NCBI GenBank assembly: GCA_004293915.1
Contig: RDZG01000069.1
Coordinates: 2,626-66,625, forward strand
Reading direction: 5' to 3'
DNA length: 64,000 bases
Source: Bacteroidota bacterium
Lineage (GTDB): Bacteria > Bacteroidota > Bacteroidia > Cytophagales > UBA9547
Shown here piece after piece: positions 8,554 through 22,919 of this stretch. The notes under the pieces were generated by a model. The model did no database searches. It was not told the DNA's origin and worked only from the letters and a program-made list of their open reading frames with translations. The position numbers were made by a program, and so were the translations under genes. Position 1 is the stretch's first letter, and every line of letters starts with the position of its first letter.

Positions 8554-9414
8554 ATGAATGCAAAATATATAAATCCGTTTACTGACTTTGGATTTAAAAA
8601 AATATTTGGAGAAGAAGCAAGTAAGTTGTTGCTTATCGACTTCTTAAATGCTTTATTGCCTCAAACCAATAAAATAGTTGATCTTACATTTAAAAATACC
8701 GAACATTTAGGACAAACAGAAATAGATAGAAAAGCTGTTTATGATATATTTTGCGAAAATGAAACAGGAGAAAAATTTATTGTAGAACTTCAAAAAGCCA
8801 AACAAAATTATTTTAAAGAACGAACCATTTATTACTCCACATTTCCAATTAGAGAACAAGCCGAAAAAGGAGAATGGAATTATAATTTAAAAATGGTTTA
8901 TTGTATTGGTATTTTGGATTTTACCTTTGACGATTACAAAGATGAACCTGAAAAAAACGAGGTAGTACATACCATAAAATTGAAAAACCAAAATGGAAAA
9001 ACATTTTATGACAAACTAACTTATATTTATATCGAAATGCCTAACTTTAAACAAAGCGAGGCAAATCTAAAAACCAGATTGGATAAATGGTTGTATTTCA
9101 TTAAACATTTAGAAGATTTTCAGACCATACCAACCATTTTTAAAGACGAAGTATTTACCATTGCATTTGAAAAAGCAGAAATTTCTAAATTTGGGCAAGC
9201 CGAATTGAAGAGTTATGAAATGAATTTAAAAATGTATAGAGATTATAAAAATACGGTTGATACAGCTTTTGATGAAGGGAAATTAGAGGGAAAATCAGAA
9301 GGAATAATAGAAGGGAAAATACAAACAGCTAAACAACTGAAAAAATTGGGAATTGAAATTTCTATTATAGAAAAATCAACTGGTCTAACAAATGAAATAA
9401 TAGAAAAACTATAA
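8554..9414 (+). CDS. Rpn-family (PD-(D/E)XK nuclease/putative transposase) protein
   Basis: YINPFTDFGFKKIFG, YDIFCE, IVELQ, ERTIYY, IEMPNF, C-terminal EGK repeats and HTH-like tail. Confidence 0.9.
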   Translation: MNAKYINPFTDFGFKKIFGEEASKLLLIDFLNALLPQTNKIVDLTFKNTEHLGQTEIDRKAVYDIFCENETGEKFIVELQKAKQNYFKERTIYYSTFPIREQAEKGEWNYNLKMVYCIGILDFTFDDYKDEPEKNEVVHTIKLKNQNGKTFYDKLTYIYIEMPNFKQSEANLKTRLDKWLYFIKHLEDFQTIPTIFKDEVFTIAFEKAEISKFGQAELKSYEMNLKMYRDYKNTVDTAFDEGKLEGKSEGIIEGKIQTAKQLKKLGIEISIIEKSTGLTNEIIEKL

Positions 9415-11347: not shown

Positions 11348-12265
11348 ATGAAATTCATTGCTAGCTCGTATTCAGATTTAGTTAATTCTATTTCTGAAAC
11401 ATATTCTTTTGGAAGGGTCAATGCTTTTAAACAAGTTAATAAATTACTTGTTGATACATATTGGAGGATTGGCAAAAATATTGTCGAATTTGAGCAAGGT
11501 GGAAATGTAAAATCTCAATACGGTTCACAGTTATTAGAACGTTTATCAAAGGATCTATCTTTACAATTTGGGAAAGGTTTTAGTTTAAGCAACCTTCAAA
11601 GATTTCGTCAGTTTTATATTTTATATCCAAATTATGCGATATCATCGCATAATTTACAAAAGTCTGACAATCAGTTTGTTAAAAATCATGCGACAGCATC
11701 GCATGATTTAAGTTGGAGTCATTATGTTGAACTTATAAAAATTGAAAATGATTTAGAAAGAAGCTTTTATGAACAACAAATACGAATAGAAAAATGGAGT
11801 ATAAATGAGTTAATAAGACAAAAAAACACCTCACTATTTTTAAGATTAGCATCAGGAAAAAATAAAGACGAAATATTGAAGTTGGCAAATCAGGGTATTA
11901 TAATTGAAAAACCTGAAGATATTTTAAAAGATACTTATGTTTTTGAATTTTTAAAAATTCCTGAACCATTTCATCTAACAGAAAATGATTTAGAAACCAG
12001 ACTTATTTCACAGTTGCAAGATTTTTTACTTGAATTAGGAAAAGGATTTGCATTTATTGGAAGACGATATATTGAAGCAGAGCAAAATGTAGAAGGAGAT
12101 AATCCACCTATTGGTTTAATACTTGCAAGAGAAAAAGATGAGTTACAAATAAAATATGCTATGAGCCACACAGATAGTAGGTTATTTGTTCAAAAATACC
12201 AACTTTTTTTACCAAATGAAGATGAACTTAGAAGAAAAATACAATCAGTTTATGAAGAACAATAA
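11348..12265 (+). CDS. YhcG/DUF1016-family protein with an apparent in-frame deletion of the nuclease core
   Basis: YWRIGKNIVE, YGSQLL..LS.DL, GKGFS, LSWSHY, KDTYVFEFL, ELGKGFAFIGR joined directly to YIEAEQNVEGDNPPIGLIL. Confidence 0.85.
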   Translation: MKFIASSYSDLVNSISETYSFGRVNAFKQVNKLLVDTYWRIGKNIVEFEQGGNVKSQYGSQLLERLSKDLSLQFGKGFSLSNLQRFRQFYILYPNYAISSHNLQKSDNQFVKNHATASHDLSWSHYVELIKIENDLERSFYEQQIRIEKWSINELIRQKNTSLFLRLASGKNKDEILKLANQGIIIEKPEDILKDTYVFEFLKIPEPFHLTENDLETRLISQLQDFLLELGKGFAFIGRRYIEAEQNVEGDNPPIGLILAREKDELQIKYAMSHTDSRLFVQKYQLFLPNEDELRRKIQSVYEEQ

Positions 12266-19594: not shown

Positions 19595-20389
19595 ATGCTA
19601 AATCTTATACTCACTCCCGTAGTTAAAGCCTTATTAATAATAAATTTTGCTGCTTTTATCATTTCGAGCATGGTATTTAGCGATTTAAACACCTATTTTA
19701 GCTTAAAATATATTTTTGCTAGCAATTTTTATCCCTACCAATTTTTTACTTATATGTTTTTACATGAATATTTTGGGAATGTTTTTTTCAATATGCTAAG
19801 TCTATTTTTTATTGGACCCATTTTGGAAATGTACTGGGGAAGCAAAAAATTCATGTATTTTTATTTTATTATCGGAATTGGAGCTGGAGTAATTTATAGC
19901 ATCATTATGTATGCTCAAATGTATGGCTTGAATTTAGAAATTGAAGCATATATTAACAATCCAACCTTTGAGAATTTTTTAAATTTTCAAAATAAACATC
20001 TGAGCGAACTTACTGATTTGAACAAAAATTTCTTGCACGAATTTCAACAAAATCCAACAAATCGAGAAGCAATTGAACAATCTATCAGATTTGCGTATAT
20101 GTTGTTTGATGTAAAATCAAAAAGTTCACTTATGGGTGCATCTGGAGCTACATATGGACTTTTAATGGCATTTGGGCTTATTTTTCCACAACGAGAGATG
20201 ATGATTTTCCCATTTCCTGTACCCATAAAAGCCTGGAAATTTATACTTGGAATTGGTGCTTTTCAATTGTTTTTAGGTTTCATTAGTCGAAGTGAAAATG
20301 TAGCCGTTCATTTTGCAAATGTAAGCGGAATGCTTTTTGCTTTCATCATGATAAAACTTTGGAAAGAAAAATCTCAAGAAGACTATTGA
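19595..20389 (+). CDS. Rhomboid-family protein, catalytic His apparently replaced
   Basis: PYQFFTYMFLH, FFNM, GASGA; HFANVSG where AHLGG is expected. Confidence 0.85.
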   Translation: MLNLILTPVVKALLIINFAAFIISSMVFSDLNTYFSLKYIFASNFYPYQFFTYMFLHEYFGNVFFNMLSLFFIGPILEMYWGSKKFMYFYFIIGIGAGVIYSIIMYAQMYGLNLEIEAYINNPTFENFLNFQNKHLSELTDLNKNFLHEFQQNPTNREAIEQSIRFAYMLFDVKSKSSLMGASGATYGLLMAFGLIFPQREMMIFPFPVPIKAWKFILGIGAFQLFLGFISRSENVAVHFANVSGMLFAFIMIKLWKEKSQEDY

Positions 20390-20444: not shown

Positions 20445-21290
20445 ATGAGCAATATAATCGAAGATTTGAAAAATTCATTTAACCGTACAGGCAACGGTTC
20501 TGGCAACGAAGTTATATATGCTCAAATCACATCATTTCTTTTTTTGCCCGCTTCGTTTCAAGAATTTATTTACAAACCTTGGACTATTTTAACTTATGCT
20601 ATTTCGCACGAAGGTTTTTTTCATATTCTTTTTAATATGATTTTTATGTATTGGTTTGGGATGATTATTACTGAATTTATAGGTTCAAAACGATTTATTA
20701 GTTTATATATTTTAGGTGCTTTAGCTGGAGGAGTTACATTTTTACTAATGTTTAACACAATTCCTTTTTTTATGAATATGCCAAATGTTCCACTTTTAGG
20801 TGCTTCTGGTGGGGTATATGCAGTAGTTGTAGGTGCTGCCGTTTTATTGCCTGATTATACATTTTATTTGCTTTTTCTTGGACCTGTTCGTATAAAATAC
20901 ATAGCTGCTTTTTATGTTTTTCTATCTTTTGCCGAAAGTATTGGACAAAATGCTGGTGGCAATTTAGCTCATTTGGGAGGTGCTTTAATGGGTTTTGTAT
21001 TTATTTGGCAATTGCGAAAAGGCAACGATTTAGGGAAACCTTTTTCGTGGATGGCAACTGGAGTTGCAAACTTGTTTAAACCCAGTTCAAAAATTAAAAT
21101 TACGTATCGCAATCCAAATCCAAAATCAAGTTCGGTAACAAATAATTCATACTCAAATTCGTCTGACAAAGAAATTTCGCAAGACGAACTTGATGCTATT
21201 TTAGATAAAATTTCTAAATACGGCTACGAAAAACTAACCAAAGAAGAAAAACAAAAACTTTTTAAAGCCAGCCAAAGTGCTGATATATAG
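20445..21290 (+). CDS. Rhomboid-family intramembrane protease with C-terminal soluble domain; first TM helix appears to be missing
   Basis: KPWT, HILFNM, GASGG, NLAHLGG, ELDAILDKISKYGYEKLTKEEK. Confidence 0.88.
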   Translation: MSNIIEDLKNSFNRTGNGSGNEVIYAQITSFLFLPASFQEFIYKPWTILTYAISHEGFFHILFNMIFMYWFGMIITEFIGSKRFISLYILGALAGGVTFLLMFNTIPFFMNMPNVPLLGASGGVYAVVVGAAVLLPDYTFYLLFLGPVRIKYIAAFYVFLSFAESIGQNAGGNLAHLGGALMGFVFIWQLRKGNDLGKPFSWMATGVANLFKPSSKIKITYRNPNPKSSSVTNNSYSNSSDKEISQDELDAILDKISKYGYEKLTKEEKQKLFKASQSADI

Positions 21291-21364
21291 AATAATAAAA
21301 ATACTTTTTTATTTTCTCAAACCTTTGGCAATCAGCATTTTACGTATTTTATTTACAAAAAAAT
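21244..21364 (+). repeat. ~120-bp direct repeat, copy 1
   Basis: 21244-21293 identical to 21923-21972; 21297-21340 identical to 21975-22018; a further ~24 nt with mismatches. Confidence 0.95.
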
Positions 21365-21396
21365 GTATCCATCTTTGAAATATATTTGTAATTAAA

Positions 21397-21825
21397 ATGA
21401 TTGAAAAAATAAAAGCATTAGTCGAATTTGCTAAAAACAGCAAAAACGCTATAAATTCAAAATTACAAATTAGCATAATTGAACAAAAAGAAGCAGAATT
21501 TTTAGAATTAAAAACTGGAATTAAATTGTTGGGTTATAAAAGAGTTATTGATAAATTTGGTATTAATCATACATTAAAAAATCATGGAAATGCTAAAACC
21601 GAGGCTTTACGCGGTCAAATAGCAATAACTGATATCGATTTTGAACTTATTCCATTAATAGTGCTTTCTAAAAATGTTATTCATACAAGTAAAAATAATA
21701 TGGGAAATGATTTGATACTTTATGAAGCTATAATTGAAAATACATTTTATTATGTGGAGGAAGTAAGAAAAGGAAAAAAAGAATTATGTATGACTACAAT
21801 GTACAAAAGAAAACCAACCATTTAA
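21397..21825 (+). CDS. Putative BECR/PBECR-like ribonuclease-fold protein
   Basis: HTLKNHG..E..RGQIAIT..DF..IP and YYVEEVR.G...L...TMY pattern recalled from phage polyvalent-protein nuclease domains. Confidence 0.55.
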   Translation: MIEKIKALVEFAKNSKNAINSKLQISIIEQKEAEFLELKTGIKLLGYKRVIDKFGINHTLKNHGNAKTEALRGQIAITDIDFELIPLIVLSKNVIHTSKNNMGNDLILYEAIIENTFYYVEEVRKGKKELCMTTMYKRKPTI

Positions 21826-21922
21826 TTAAAATAGTTGGTTTAAAATCAACGAGTTATGCTCAATTTCACCTACTCCTTACGTCCAAAACGTATTTTGATT
21901 ACACAAATATACAATATCTTAT

Positions 21923-22043
21923 AAGAAAAACAAAAACTTTTTAAAGCCAGCCAAAGTGCTGATATATAGAATTGAAAAATACTTTTTTATTTTCTCAAAC
22001 CTTTGGCAATCAGCATTTCACGTATTTTGTTCACTAAAAAAAT
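21923..22043 (+). repeat. ~120-bp direct repeat, copy 2
   Basis: Matches copy 1; overlaps the 3' end of the MTHFR-like gene. Confidence 0.95.
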
Positions 22044-22919
22044 TGAAGCTTCAATTTCTTCTTTTCTTATAGCTACCGATTCGATATTAAACCCAAAAGG
22101 GATTGATTTTGAATGGCAATAATTAATTAATTCATCGGCTATTTCGATACAAATATCCAGCGATTGAGCCAAAATATTTTCTGATTGTAGTAGTTTTTGC
22201 TTTTGTGTTTCAGGGATATGTATGCCCAACCATTCCATAAATTCCAATGTTTTTGCCGAACCACATGCAGTAAGTGTAAAAATTAGCGTAGGAATTTCTC
22301 TGTTTTTAGTTGTACACGTTTTTTGTAAATCTTCTAATACTTTTTTTGCATAATCGACATTGAAAATACATTGAGATATGAAATAACTCACACCAGAATT
22401 CATTTTATCTAAAATTCGCACATCTTCGTCTTTCAAAACTGCATGGCGTTCGGGAATCATAACTGCACCAATGGCAGTTGTGTTTTTGTGTTTGCTCCAA
22501 AGTGCATAAGCCTCTGGCAATGTGGTTTTTACCTTAAAATCAGGCGAAGGCAGACCAACAAAAACAGGATGAAAATTATTTTTTTCTATTTTTTCGAGCC
22601 ATTCGGTAAGTTCTTCTTTCGAGAATTTTCCGGCAGGTCTGTATATTATTTTTTCTAATTTTAGTGGGTTTAAATGAGAGCTGGCAAAATCCAAAGGATC
22701 GAGCGCACTCATAAACGGGAAAGGTCTTTCTTCGCTTGTTCGTGCCGATTCGTCTTGCACATCGTACACAACCAAGGCATCTAAATCTAAATTATATAAT
22801 CTTGTTAGGGTTTTTTCGGCAATTTCAACTACTTTTTCGGGCAATGTTTGCGATTTTGGAGGAGTAATACCATAAATCAATATACCAGACTCTCTTTGTT
22901 TTATTTTAGATAAGAACAT
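21987..22919 (-). CDS. Methylenetetrahydrofolate reductase-like protein
   Basis: YGITPPK, YDVQDES.R...RPFPF, IPERH, FISQ, TLEFMEWLGI, FNIESVAIRKEEI. Confidence 0.75.
   Translation of the reverse strand: MFLSKIKQRESGILIYGITPPKSQTLPEKVVEIAEKTLTRLYNLDLDALVVYDVQDESARTSEERPFPFMSALDPLDFASSHLNPLKLEKIIYRPAGKFSKEELTEWLEKIEKNNFHPVFVGLPSPDFKVKTTLPEAYALWSKHKNTTAIGAVMIPERHAVLKDEDVRILDKMNSGVSYFISQCIFNVDYAKKVLEDLQKTCTTKNREIPTLIFTLTACGSAKTLEFMEWLGIHIPETQKQKLLQSENILAQSLDICIEIADELINYCHSKSIPFGFNIESVAIRKEEIEASIFLVNKIREMLIAKGLRK

Follow-up and report, generated by a model that had tools for sequence, protein, structure and literature searches.

A putative RNase and antisense-RNA cassette between duplicated gene ends in a Bacteroidota genome

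A lone gene for a nuclease-like protein, lying between two long direct repeats that duplicate the ends of both neighbouring genes, raises the question of what such an insert is and how it came to be there. The gene is found in a Bacteroidota bacterium (GCA_004293915.1, an assembly of 156 contigs) on contig RDZG01000069.1, of which we analysed the 64,000 nt between positions 2,626 and 66,625 of the forward strand; this whole stretch is called the window, and all coordinates refer to it unless another locus is named. The insert (about 21365-21922) would in our reading be one copy of a small two-gene cassette, consisting of an RNase gene and a gene for an antisense RNA, that spreads horizontally and was inserted here by a duplicative illegitimate event; on this reading as a whole our confidence and our doubt are in balance.

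The repeat was delimited with a repeat finder and by reading of the window. Copy A (21244-21364) consists of the working end of a rhomboid-family gene (21244-21290), a spacer (21291-21308) and a spare, non-functional end of an MTHFR-like gene (21309-21364, the last ~18 codons and the stop codon), and copy B (21923-22042) of a spare rhomboid end (21923-21969), a spacer (21970-21986) and the working MTHFR-like end (21987-22042); each copy pairs one working gene end with one spare end. The copies start 679 nt apart and in a global alignment (121 versus 120 nt) differ in 8 columns. The longest exact match between the flanks measures 44 nt; in random windows the median was 8 nt and no match exceeded 15 nt, which excludes a repeat by chance. 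The preliminary description of the locus, made from the letters of the window, had noted a direct repeat of ~120 bp that duplicates both gene ends and leaves both host genes intact, and so it proved: the rhomboid gene ends in copy A and the MTHFR-like gene in copy B. It had also noted that the insert carries no recombinase, and indeed the 558 bp between the copies hold a single open reading frame (ORF) of 142 aa, the only one there of at least 60 aa, with 32 nt before it and about 97 nt after it. The 32-nt leader (21365-21396, plus strand), which is unconserved at other loci, contains a plus-strand match to the Bacteroidota -7 promoter box (21381-21388), 8 nt before the ATG. No terminal inverted repeats were found at the ends of the unit when the repeat finder was run on the window. 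A 23-nt third partial repeat (21888-21910) was rejected as such; it belongs to the conserved RNA element described below and matches the MTHFR-like end over 10 nt, perhaps by chance.

The predicted RNase gene and the element that follows it

The ORF (21397-21825, plus strand) belongs to the PBECR3 family (Pfam PF18812), members of which are predicted metal-independent endoRNases of the BECR fold, and encodes a putative toxin. It matches the PF18812 profile with 68.1 bits (cut-off 30; E 8.2e-19), residues 30-139 aligning to positions 5-109 of 115, and a homologue search in 5.8 billion proteins returned 72 clusters, all of 79-157 aa and all with PF18812. An AlphaFold2 model built from an alignment of 31 homologues has a mean predicted local confidence (pLDDT) of 94.5, and its best fold matches (VIA-align), of middling score, are BrnT (Z 6.2), the Salmonella toxin-antitoxin toxin 7vd7 (6.0), several CdiA-CT toxins (5.2, 5.0 and 4.9), colicin D (4.5) and RelE (4.4), with BECR-type RNase toxins occupying all of the top 12 rows. 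The profile match, together with these fold matches of RelE/BrnT/CdiA-CT/colicin D type, bears out the earlier suggestion of a nuclease-like product. Counted on the same alignment of 31 homologues, residues H58, H63, D81 and F82 are invariant and R72, E122, R124, Y136 and K137 are at least 90% conserved; by comparison with the BECR literature, H58/H63 and the C-terminal basic and polar residues may well have a catalytic role.

The relevant part of PMC5512222 (Iyer et al. 2017) describes PBECR domains as predicted RNases of the polyvalent proteins of phages and conjugative elements, and a 2026 bioRxiv preprint, in the part that concerns them, places PBECR3 among the colicin-like BECR folds. Matches of the ORF in plasmids and phages were distant only (32-38% identity), for instance to the C-terminal parts of Burkholderia phage portal-fusion proteins; PHROGs gave weak matches only, to families of unknown function, and among viral contigs we found 0 relatives of the ORF and 0 matches to a 31-nt core of the RNA element. 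In the literature we found no paper on a PBECR gene paired with an RNA partner.

The first relatives came from a scan of one genome per species, which gave four relatives of the ORF with their flanks. The DNA similarity between relatives begins at the start codon and runs ~100 nt beyond the stop codon, and in this 3' element the identity to the window exceeds that in the ORF (90.8% versus 82.2% at locus L027, 85.1% versus 74.5% at L028 and 80.5% versus 72.0% at L029). The insert thus consists of two parts, the ORF and a non-coding element of ~100 nt, the second of which had not been noticed in the preliminary description.

A predicted small RNA convergent with the RNase gene

The element has a recurrent design. 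A hairpin that resembles an intrinsic terminator, with a T-rich tail, lies on the minus strand at 21811-21841 and overlaps the last codons and the stop codon of the ORF; it is the only terminator-like site in 21150-22150, where shuffles expect 0.2, and a strong hairpin over the stop codon is predicted at 14 of 14 folded loci, the sequence of the stem varying by group while complementarity is kept. Next to it lies a predicted structured core (21845-21899, minus strand; 70.3 bits, E 3e-23 with our covariance model R1), which is closed by helix P1 and contains P2, a hairpin that is conserved, as well as the short helix P3. Past P1, just upstream in the minus-strand direction, is a match (21904-21911, minus strand) to the Bacteroidota -7 promoter consensus, as given in the relevant part of PMC7366714, and a TTTG motif is found 19 nt upstream of this box (21934-21931), within the spare rhomboid end of copy B. 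A minus-strand -7 box occupies the same place at 13 of 14 loci; the background frequency of such boxes is 1.26 per kb and strand. The whole predicted RNA would be ~95-100 nt long and run on the minus strand from about 21897 to about 21803.

The evidence for the helices comes from their covariation. P1 is present as four different complementary arm pairs, and in an anchored comparison the two arms of one and the same element form 5.62 bp on average. Arms combined across groups (116 pairs) average 2.21 bp, with 5 bp reached by 7 of these pairs; an unanchored helix search did not separate own from cross-group pairs (5.79 versus 4.76 bp), and the anchored test was used instead. RNAalifold did not recover the helices from the raw MAFFT alignment of 14 elements, in which the helix registers are misaligned. 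In the MAFFT alignment of 13 cores on which the structure statistics were calculated, 95.6% of the cells assigned to pairs are paired. Shuffles gave 84.4%, none of the 500 reaching the observed value, and sliding the partner column gave 27-48%; in this count the figures for helix 1 are inflated by the choice of the P1 arms for their complementarity. Compensatory changes were found at 5 pairs; for instance, pair 27-51 in P3, which is independent of the choice of P1 arms, is GC in 8 sequences, AU in 3 and UA in 2. The strand of the RNA can be approached in the same way: of the 183 paired cells, 22 are G-U when the minus strand is read, whereas reading the plus strand would turn them into A-C mismatches, and P1 of loci L055 and L050 holds only with G-U pairs. 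Together with the -7 box and the sole terminator-like site, this favours the minus strand as the strand of the predicted RNA.

The element goes with the ORF. Model R1 scored 49.8-70.3 bits at 14 loci and at most 23.3 bits everywhere else, the best other hit being 23.3 bits in 151 genomes of the genus Flavobacterium (the genus of genome G052) and 15.8 bits in the own genome; in a class-wide sample a strong match was found in 2 of 151 genomes, the own genome included. By eye, the element was recognised at all 9 intact homologues in the 401 Flavobacterium-genus genomes that were searched for the ORF, including homologues of 31-38% protein identity, and a pseudogene copy (L056) has a decayed element that is uninformative. 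No Rfam family covers the element; the best match in 21200-22100 is SSRC34_2, with 24.6 bits against a gathering threshold of 48, and concerns the terminator hairpin only. Small ORFs within the element were considered and rejected since, on reading of the alignments, none is conserved across the groups. At L030, a Chitinophaga-labelled contig with iteron-like 10-nt repeats at 791-942, we also observed a second, weak R1 match (1922-1974, 17 bits) that adjoins the first.

We read the 3' element as a predicted small RNA gene that is convergent with the ORF, and the small RNA as most likely a putative RNA antitoxin. The unit has no room for a protein antitoxin, and an RNase gene that is conserved, apparently active and alone in core operons needs restraint; the RNA, which overlaps the 3' end of the ORF, is the obvious candidate for this. 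The first gene of the cassette would then be the PBECR3 RNase of BECR fold, co-oriented with the upstream host gene and probably read through from it, and the second a convergent structured RNA of ~95-100 nt with its own Bacteroidota-type promoter box and a terminator that overlaps the 3' end of the RNase gene. The RNA may neutralise the RNase by cis-antisense pairing with the 3' end of its mRNA, by binding the protein, or by both, which would make the cassette a toxin/RNA-antitoxin module for addiction or defence. Such a role would explain why a lone insert persists within core operons and why the RNA can survive the loss of the toxin. Both the toxicity of the ORF product and the antitoxin role of the RNA are putative.

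An alternative for the 3' element is that it acts on the plus strand as a 3' untranslated region or terminator, or as DNA, in the form of a recombination or recognition site by which the mobile unit is defined, and that the ORF encodes an RNase of defence or counter-defence for which no antidote is required. For this speaks that the stop-codon hairpin is in some loci preceded by an A-tract and followed by a T-tract and could terminate on both strands, that the right boundary of the unit lies just beyond the element in every context, and that at one site (L071) the element marks the exact joint with another nuclease gene (YhcG/DUF1016); the PBECR domains of phage polyvalent proteins, moreover, are not known to have an antidote (PMC5512222). 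Nevertheless, the G-U pairs, the -7 box and the T-rich tail favour the minus strand, and P1-P3 covary as expected for an RNA rather than for a protein-binding DNA site. By eye, the element also does not fit the R'/R'' consensus of integron attC sites. We consider this alternative improbable.

Sites of the cassette and origin of the duplications

The cassette was found at 12 sites, that of the window and 11 others, and at none of these is a recombinase present inside the unit. The search of the 401 Flavobacterium-genus genomes gave 10 places in 8 genomes, a phylum-wide sample contained the RNA element in 2 of 401 genomes (the own genome included), and metagenome contigs contributed 1 match, another copy between hisD and hisC. 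Several sites lie in core operons of Flavobacterium-genus genomes: at L028, L029 and L032 the cassette is located, co-oriented, between hisD and hisC, and at L051 and L055, again co-oriented, between two nuo genes. The closest relative (L027, 87% protein identity) is found 17 nt after a tyrosine-integrase-like gene, with an HTH_17 excisionase-like gene nearby. The other sites are a phage- or plasmid-like contig (L030) and positions after an LPD3 protein and near a Fic gene (L048), near a GIY-YIG gene (L049), between two small ORFs (L050, in genome G798), after an MFS transporter gene (L052), near a GNAT gene (L053) and after a DUF2400 gene (L054). A toxin-less site (L071, in genome G468; 1268-2786) combines the RNA element (62 bits) with a gene for a YhcG/DUF1016 nuclease of the PD-(D/E)XK type, to which the last 5 codons of the toxin gene, all that remains of it, are joined.

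The nearest upstream ORF is co-oriented with the cassette ORF at 11 of 11 sites with an intact ORF, often with a gap of 2-17 nt or an overlap, an arrangement that suggests expression of the cassette ORF by transcripts running on from the host gene. In most other Flavobacterium-genus genomes the hisD/hisC and nuo junctions are empty, hisD and hisC overlapping by 11 nt and the two nuo genes lying 13 nt apart. The occurrence of the unit at unrelated sites in other genomes points to horizontal movement and upholds the mobility proposed in the preliminary description. In the window, too, the insert is foreign, as judged from its composition and distribution: with a GC content of 0.251 it lies below the window (0.308) and the two flanking genes (0.32-0.34), it is single-copy in the own genome, and among 40 relatives of that genome it was not found in the 21 of the same family (including G001 and G002, which are of the same genus), the sole match among the 40 being one weak hit in another family.

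How the cassette enters its sites can be approached through the flanking duplications. Host-derived duplications were found at 3 of the 12 sites, with lengths of 120 nt in the window, 27 nt at L050 and ~100 nt at L071. At L050 a perfect 27-nt repeat (579-605 and 1151-1177, spaced 572 nt) brackets the cassette and spans the end of the upstream ORF and the ATG of the downstream ORF, which overlap as ATGA; 6 nt of it are common with the start of the cassette ORF, which appears to use the duplicated start context. At L071 the repeat (~100 nt, 81% identity, spacing 1419 nt) is the 3' end of a TPR gene and flanks the block of RNA element and YhcG gene. In the scan of 14 loci, with random windows as background, a flank repeat above background was found only in the window and at L050; the hisD/hisC and nuo sites show at most a degenerate re-creation of about 8-11 nt. 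The preliminary description had proposed to look for long flanking duplications at homologues elsewhere, and these exist at L050 and L071, whereas at nine sites no flank repeat rises above background. The three duplications share just a T-rich 9-mer-like stretch, which by our estimate is possibly chance. Their varying lengths (27, 120 and ~100 nt) argue against a fixed-length cut by a transposase, and neither a transposase nor terminal inverted repeats were found in the unit; the preliminary description had remarked that the repeat is much longer than the target duplication of an insertion sequence.

These data favour, as a reading of the compared sequences, an imprecise duplicative event followed by selection for intact neighbours. 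In the window the rhomboid and MTHFR-like genes converge on a gap of 18 nt, which the cassette would have entered by an illegitimate event with two joints 120 nt apart in staggered order, as could result from template switching at a fork or from fill-in of staggered breaks, and selection would have retained the outcome that leaves both gene ends intact. Target-primed retrotransposition was set aside, as the unit includes the promoter of the RNA, extends past the terminator of the ORF and has imprecise ends.

The preliminary description had favoured another route, a Campbell-type entry in which a circle of ~679 bp, consisting of the cassette and one 120-bp copy of the repeat that stems from a related strain, recombined into the site through one homologous crossover and is still able to loop out. 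The direct repeats are long enough for recombination of the RecA type, so that the two copies could in principle recombine as then suggested, and the presence of cassettes at the same site in several species (hisD/hisC at L028, L029 and L032, nuo at L051 and L055) would fit spread by flanking homology. Campbell entry may account for spread between strains that share a site, but it cannot create a first duplication: the donor must already carry the duplication, of which the origin is left unexplained. Neither sequence nor length is common to the three duplications, which lie at unrelated sites. The preliminary description had pointed to synonymous changes in the spare MTHFR-like end, and of the 8 differences between the copies 2 are of this kind, which would favour the route. 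The comparison of the two translations of this end gave 2 synonymous changes (in an N and a V codon), 2 non-synonymous ones (E to K and L to F) and 1 at the repeat border, 2 versus 2 being too few to weigh either way. Moreover, donor and recipient would need to be identical over the 47-nt rhomboid part and yet to differ by about 11% next door. At L071 the spare end differs from the working end about equally in synonymous (pS 0.21-0.25) and non-synonymous (pN 0.18-0.21) positions (20-33 codons), which fits decay in place; a copy that had evolved in a working gene elsewhere would give a pN well below pS.

Contigs of public runs bear on this route as well as on the physical reality of the insert. 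The junctions were checked with Logan contigs aligned to the window (contigs only, no reads); six public runs carry part of the stretch, of which the best four, X1-X4, come from one study, and their contigs break in the repeat, where an identical stretch of 50 nt exceeds the contig word size. In X1, a 564-nt contig (21311-21874) spans the left junction at a depth of 111, versus 96 and 88-106 in the flanks, in X2 a 655-nt contig (21321-21972) spans both junctions and in X3 a 140-nt contig (21816-21955) spans the right junction. Insert and flanks have equal depth in X1 and X2, and with these junction contigs the insert looks fixed and integrated in the sampled populations. An 86-nt contig of X2 over 21266-21350, which covers the rhomboid end, the spacer and the MTHFR-like end, has a depth of 19.2 versus 7.8-9.5 around it, and this doubling indicates that the copies in X2 are identical over those 86 nt, another point against a repeat copy brought in from a related strain. 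A circle junction (21922 back to 21244) was not reported among the run contigs. In X4, a short contig joins 21291 to 21983 via 11 other letters; this could be the empty allele expected from looping out, but with a shorter side of 44 nt only it is ambiguous and might just as well represent one of the two copies with a variant spacer. The search of public runs for a circle or an empty allele thus yielded this one ambiguous candidate. With no positive evidence for it, a circle that needs a pre-duplicated donor, the X2 identity and the ratio at L071, we consider a Campbell-type origin of the insert in the window unlikely.

X3 holds two further contigs of interest. One joins the repeat end, via 20 leader-like letters, straight to 21758 and represents a copy of the cassette from which the first ~120 codons of the ORF are gone and in which the 3' element is kept; like L071, it would fit an antidote that outlives its toxin. 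The other, over 21404-21842, carries a near-identical copy of the ORF with several small indels and a different context on both sides, and represents either a further site of the cassette or, in an organism that co-occurs, a copy in decay.

A further alternative is that the repeats are attL and attR of a once larger integrase island that integrated into the gene ends, carried the spare ones and was later reduced by deletion to the toxin/antitoxin cassette, a part that is hard to lose. Integrative elements that restore a 3' gene end and leave a diverged spare copy are well known, for instance e14 and phage 21 at icd, and the L027 cassette, which follows a tyrosine-integrase-like gene at a distance of 17 nt and has an excisionase-like gene close by, is suggestive in this respect. 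Between the copies in the window, however, there is no remnant of an integrase, and the sequence that is left unexplained amounts to only 32 nt and about 11 nt; at L050 the start codon of the cassette ORF lies inside the 27-nt repeat, the T-rich 9-mer-like stretch that the duplications share could be chance, and three sites would have to be trimmed independently to nearly the same unit, a coincidence. We regard this history as quite unlikely. Finally, that the arrangement is a metagenome mis-assembly, a chimera of strain variants, as might be suspected from the 156 contigs of the genome, the break of the run contigs at the 50-nt identical stretch and 72 letters missing elsewhere from the window, is scarcely credible with the left junction crossed in X1 and X2 and the right one in X2 and X3, with insert depth equal to flank depth in X1 and X2, and with the shared repeat contig of X2 at double depth.

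The 72 letters in question are present in all four runs between 20497 and 20498 and absent from the window (the X1 sequence there has a depth of 96 and is otherwise identical), and the rhomboid protein of the window lacks the corresponding 24 residues, a hydrophobic stretch that is present in a same-genus orthologue. Either the assembly collapsed locally or the window carries a genuine variant with an in-frame deletion; compared with the four runs, the assembly is imperfect near the locus.

A number of observations weigh against the two-gene cassette and its duplicative insertion as we read them. The fold matches of the ORF are middling (Z 4.4-6.2), and a Z below 8 can mean merely a common arrangement; Foldseek gave no hit for the ORF model at E <= 0.001, and PADLOC and NCBIfam contain no family for the ORF. 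For the RNA, transcription is a prediction from sequence signals, locus L030 is without the promoter box, and R1 gave no score at L048, the element of which has insertions. The structure was partly derived from the sequences that were later scored, with the P1 arms picked by complementarity, and many of these sequences are related, so that they represent about 5 diverged groups only. With respect to insertion, 9 of 12 sites have no flank repeat above background, so that duplication is not a constant feature, and in the window the differences between the copies are unevenly spread: they number 0/47 in the rhomboid end, 3/18 in the spacer and 5/56 in the MTHFR-like end (0/47 versus 8/74 for the remainder, Fisher p = 0.022). 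Simple decay in place, in the absence of gene conversion or constraint, does not predict such a spread, and no model accounts for it that does not invoke gene conversion or constraint on the spare rhomboid end.

Neighbouring genes and relation to known systems

The upstream host gene (20445-21290, plus strand) encodes a rhomboid-family protein of 281 aa (Pfam Rhomboid, E 7e-23, and DUF6576), of which the last ~15 codons and the stop codon lie inside copy A. It is the second of two rhomboid-family genes in tandem (19595-20389 and 20445-21290) directly after the gene for topoisomerase I, a pair that is also present in the same-genus genome G001. The convergent gene (21987-22919, minus strand) encodes a protein of 310 aa with a weak match to Pfam MTHFR (E 3.5e-5, 23.7 bits, just below the cut-off of 24) and with NCBIfam scores far under the cut-offs; orthologues were found in G011 (72%) and G010 (62%), and none in G001 and G002. 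The preliminary description had proposed to look for the empty site in relatives, and no empty rhomboid/MTHFR-like junction was found in species-level relatives, where gene order differs: the gene after the rhomboid gene is RluD-like in G002 and restriction-modification-like in G001, and in G010 and G011 the rhomboid and MTHFR-like genes are located on separate contigs. The 22 larger ORFs that we scanned between 8 and 38 kb have housekeeping functions (e.g. L19, SmpB, topoisomerase I and SAM synthetase) and do not include an integrase; the only family among them with transposase in its name is that of a PDDEXK_2 'nuclease family transposase' gene (8554-9414), 12 kb off. This gene and a DUF1016/YhcG nuclease gene (11348-12265) lie 10-13 kb upstream of the cassette, and we found no link between them and the insertion.

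The predicted cassette would resemble type I toxin-antitoxin systems such as txpA/RatA and bsrG/SR4 of Bacillus subtilis and par of Enterococcus, which have convergent antisense RNAs that overlap at the 3' end, and SymE/SymR, of which the toxin is nuclease-like: its putative toxin and RNA genes are convergent, the predicted terminator of the RNA would be complementary to the 3' end of the toxin mRNA and there is no protein antitoxin. It differs in that the ORF encodes a predicted soluble 142-aa RNase of alpha/beta fold instead of a small hydrophobic membrane peptide. Moreover, the overlap takes up the smaller part of the predicted RNA, the remainder being a conserved core of three helices, so that its action may go beyond plain antisense pairing. 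With type III systems (ToxIN, CptIN and TenpIN, as treated in the relevant part of PMC8860590) it would share an endoRNase toxin and a structured RNA that possibly binds the protein. In those systems, however, the antitoxin consists of tandem repeats upstream of the toxin gene on the same strand, whereas the RNA of the cassette is single-copy, downstream and on the opposite strand, the fold is BECR and not ToxN/AbiEii-like, and there are no repeats upstream of the ORF beyond the 120-nt host duplication. The PBECR domains of polyvalent proteins (PMC5512222, in the part that concerns them) belong to the same PF18812, are likewise predicted metal-independent BECR RNases with a conserved helix histidine before the sheet, and are mentioned there in solo versions too; in the cassette the domain is a stand-alone chromosomal protein of 142 aa, in all cases accompanied by a conserved RNA element in convergent orientation, and situated between core genes.

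As regards its integration, the cassette differs from insertion sequences and transposons by having no transposase, no terminal inverted repeats and no fixed-length target duplication, and from integrase islands with att repeats by having no integrase inside, although its relative at L027 adjoins one outside the unit. The elements e14 and phage 21 integrate in the 3' end of icd of E. coli and leave a spare icd end; as at our locus, direct repeats of a host 3' end flank foreign DNA, the gene stays intact and the spare copy has few substitutions. They encode an integrase and use one fixed site, whereas the cassette has no integrase, shows varied duplications per site and in the window has two convergent gene ends duplicated. 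Integron gene cassettes also have a promoterless ORF with the boundary near its start codon, followed by a structured element of ~60-140 nt, and no recombinase, but the 3' element of our cassette is conserved in sequence, has promoter and terminator signals of its own and lacks attC core sites by eye, there is no attI/intI context and the insertions duplicate host sequence.

Judged by sequence comparison, the cassette family is undescribed and its RNA element is a candidate new RNA family. We also put forward a wider and rather unlikely proposal, namely that there exists a family of autonomous 'nano-cassettes' of ~0.55 kb, each combining a BECR RNase toxin with a convergent structured RNA antitoxin in a new class distinct from both classical type I and type III, which without a recombinase of their own would colonise tightly packed junctions of core genes in Flavobacteriia by duplicative insertion, with variable host repeats of 27 to >100 nt and perhaps with participation of the hairpin-rich end. 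Single genes between core genes, flanked by long duplications of gene ends and with no recombinase, have in the cassette a tractable case, as insertion can be compared across 12 sites with three duplications of differing ages and with empty junctions for two operons. For Rfam, the element is a candidate family with a covariance model that separates cleanly (at least 49.8 bits versus at most 23.3 bits). If the RNA is the antitoxin, the cassette would represent a new toxin/RNA-antitoxin family in the Bacteroidota, a phylum that is poorly charted for RNA-based control of toxins, and the RNA would be the first partner in the cell to be proposed for any PBECR RNase.

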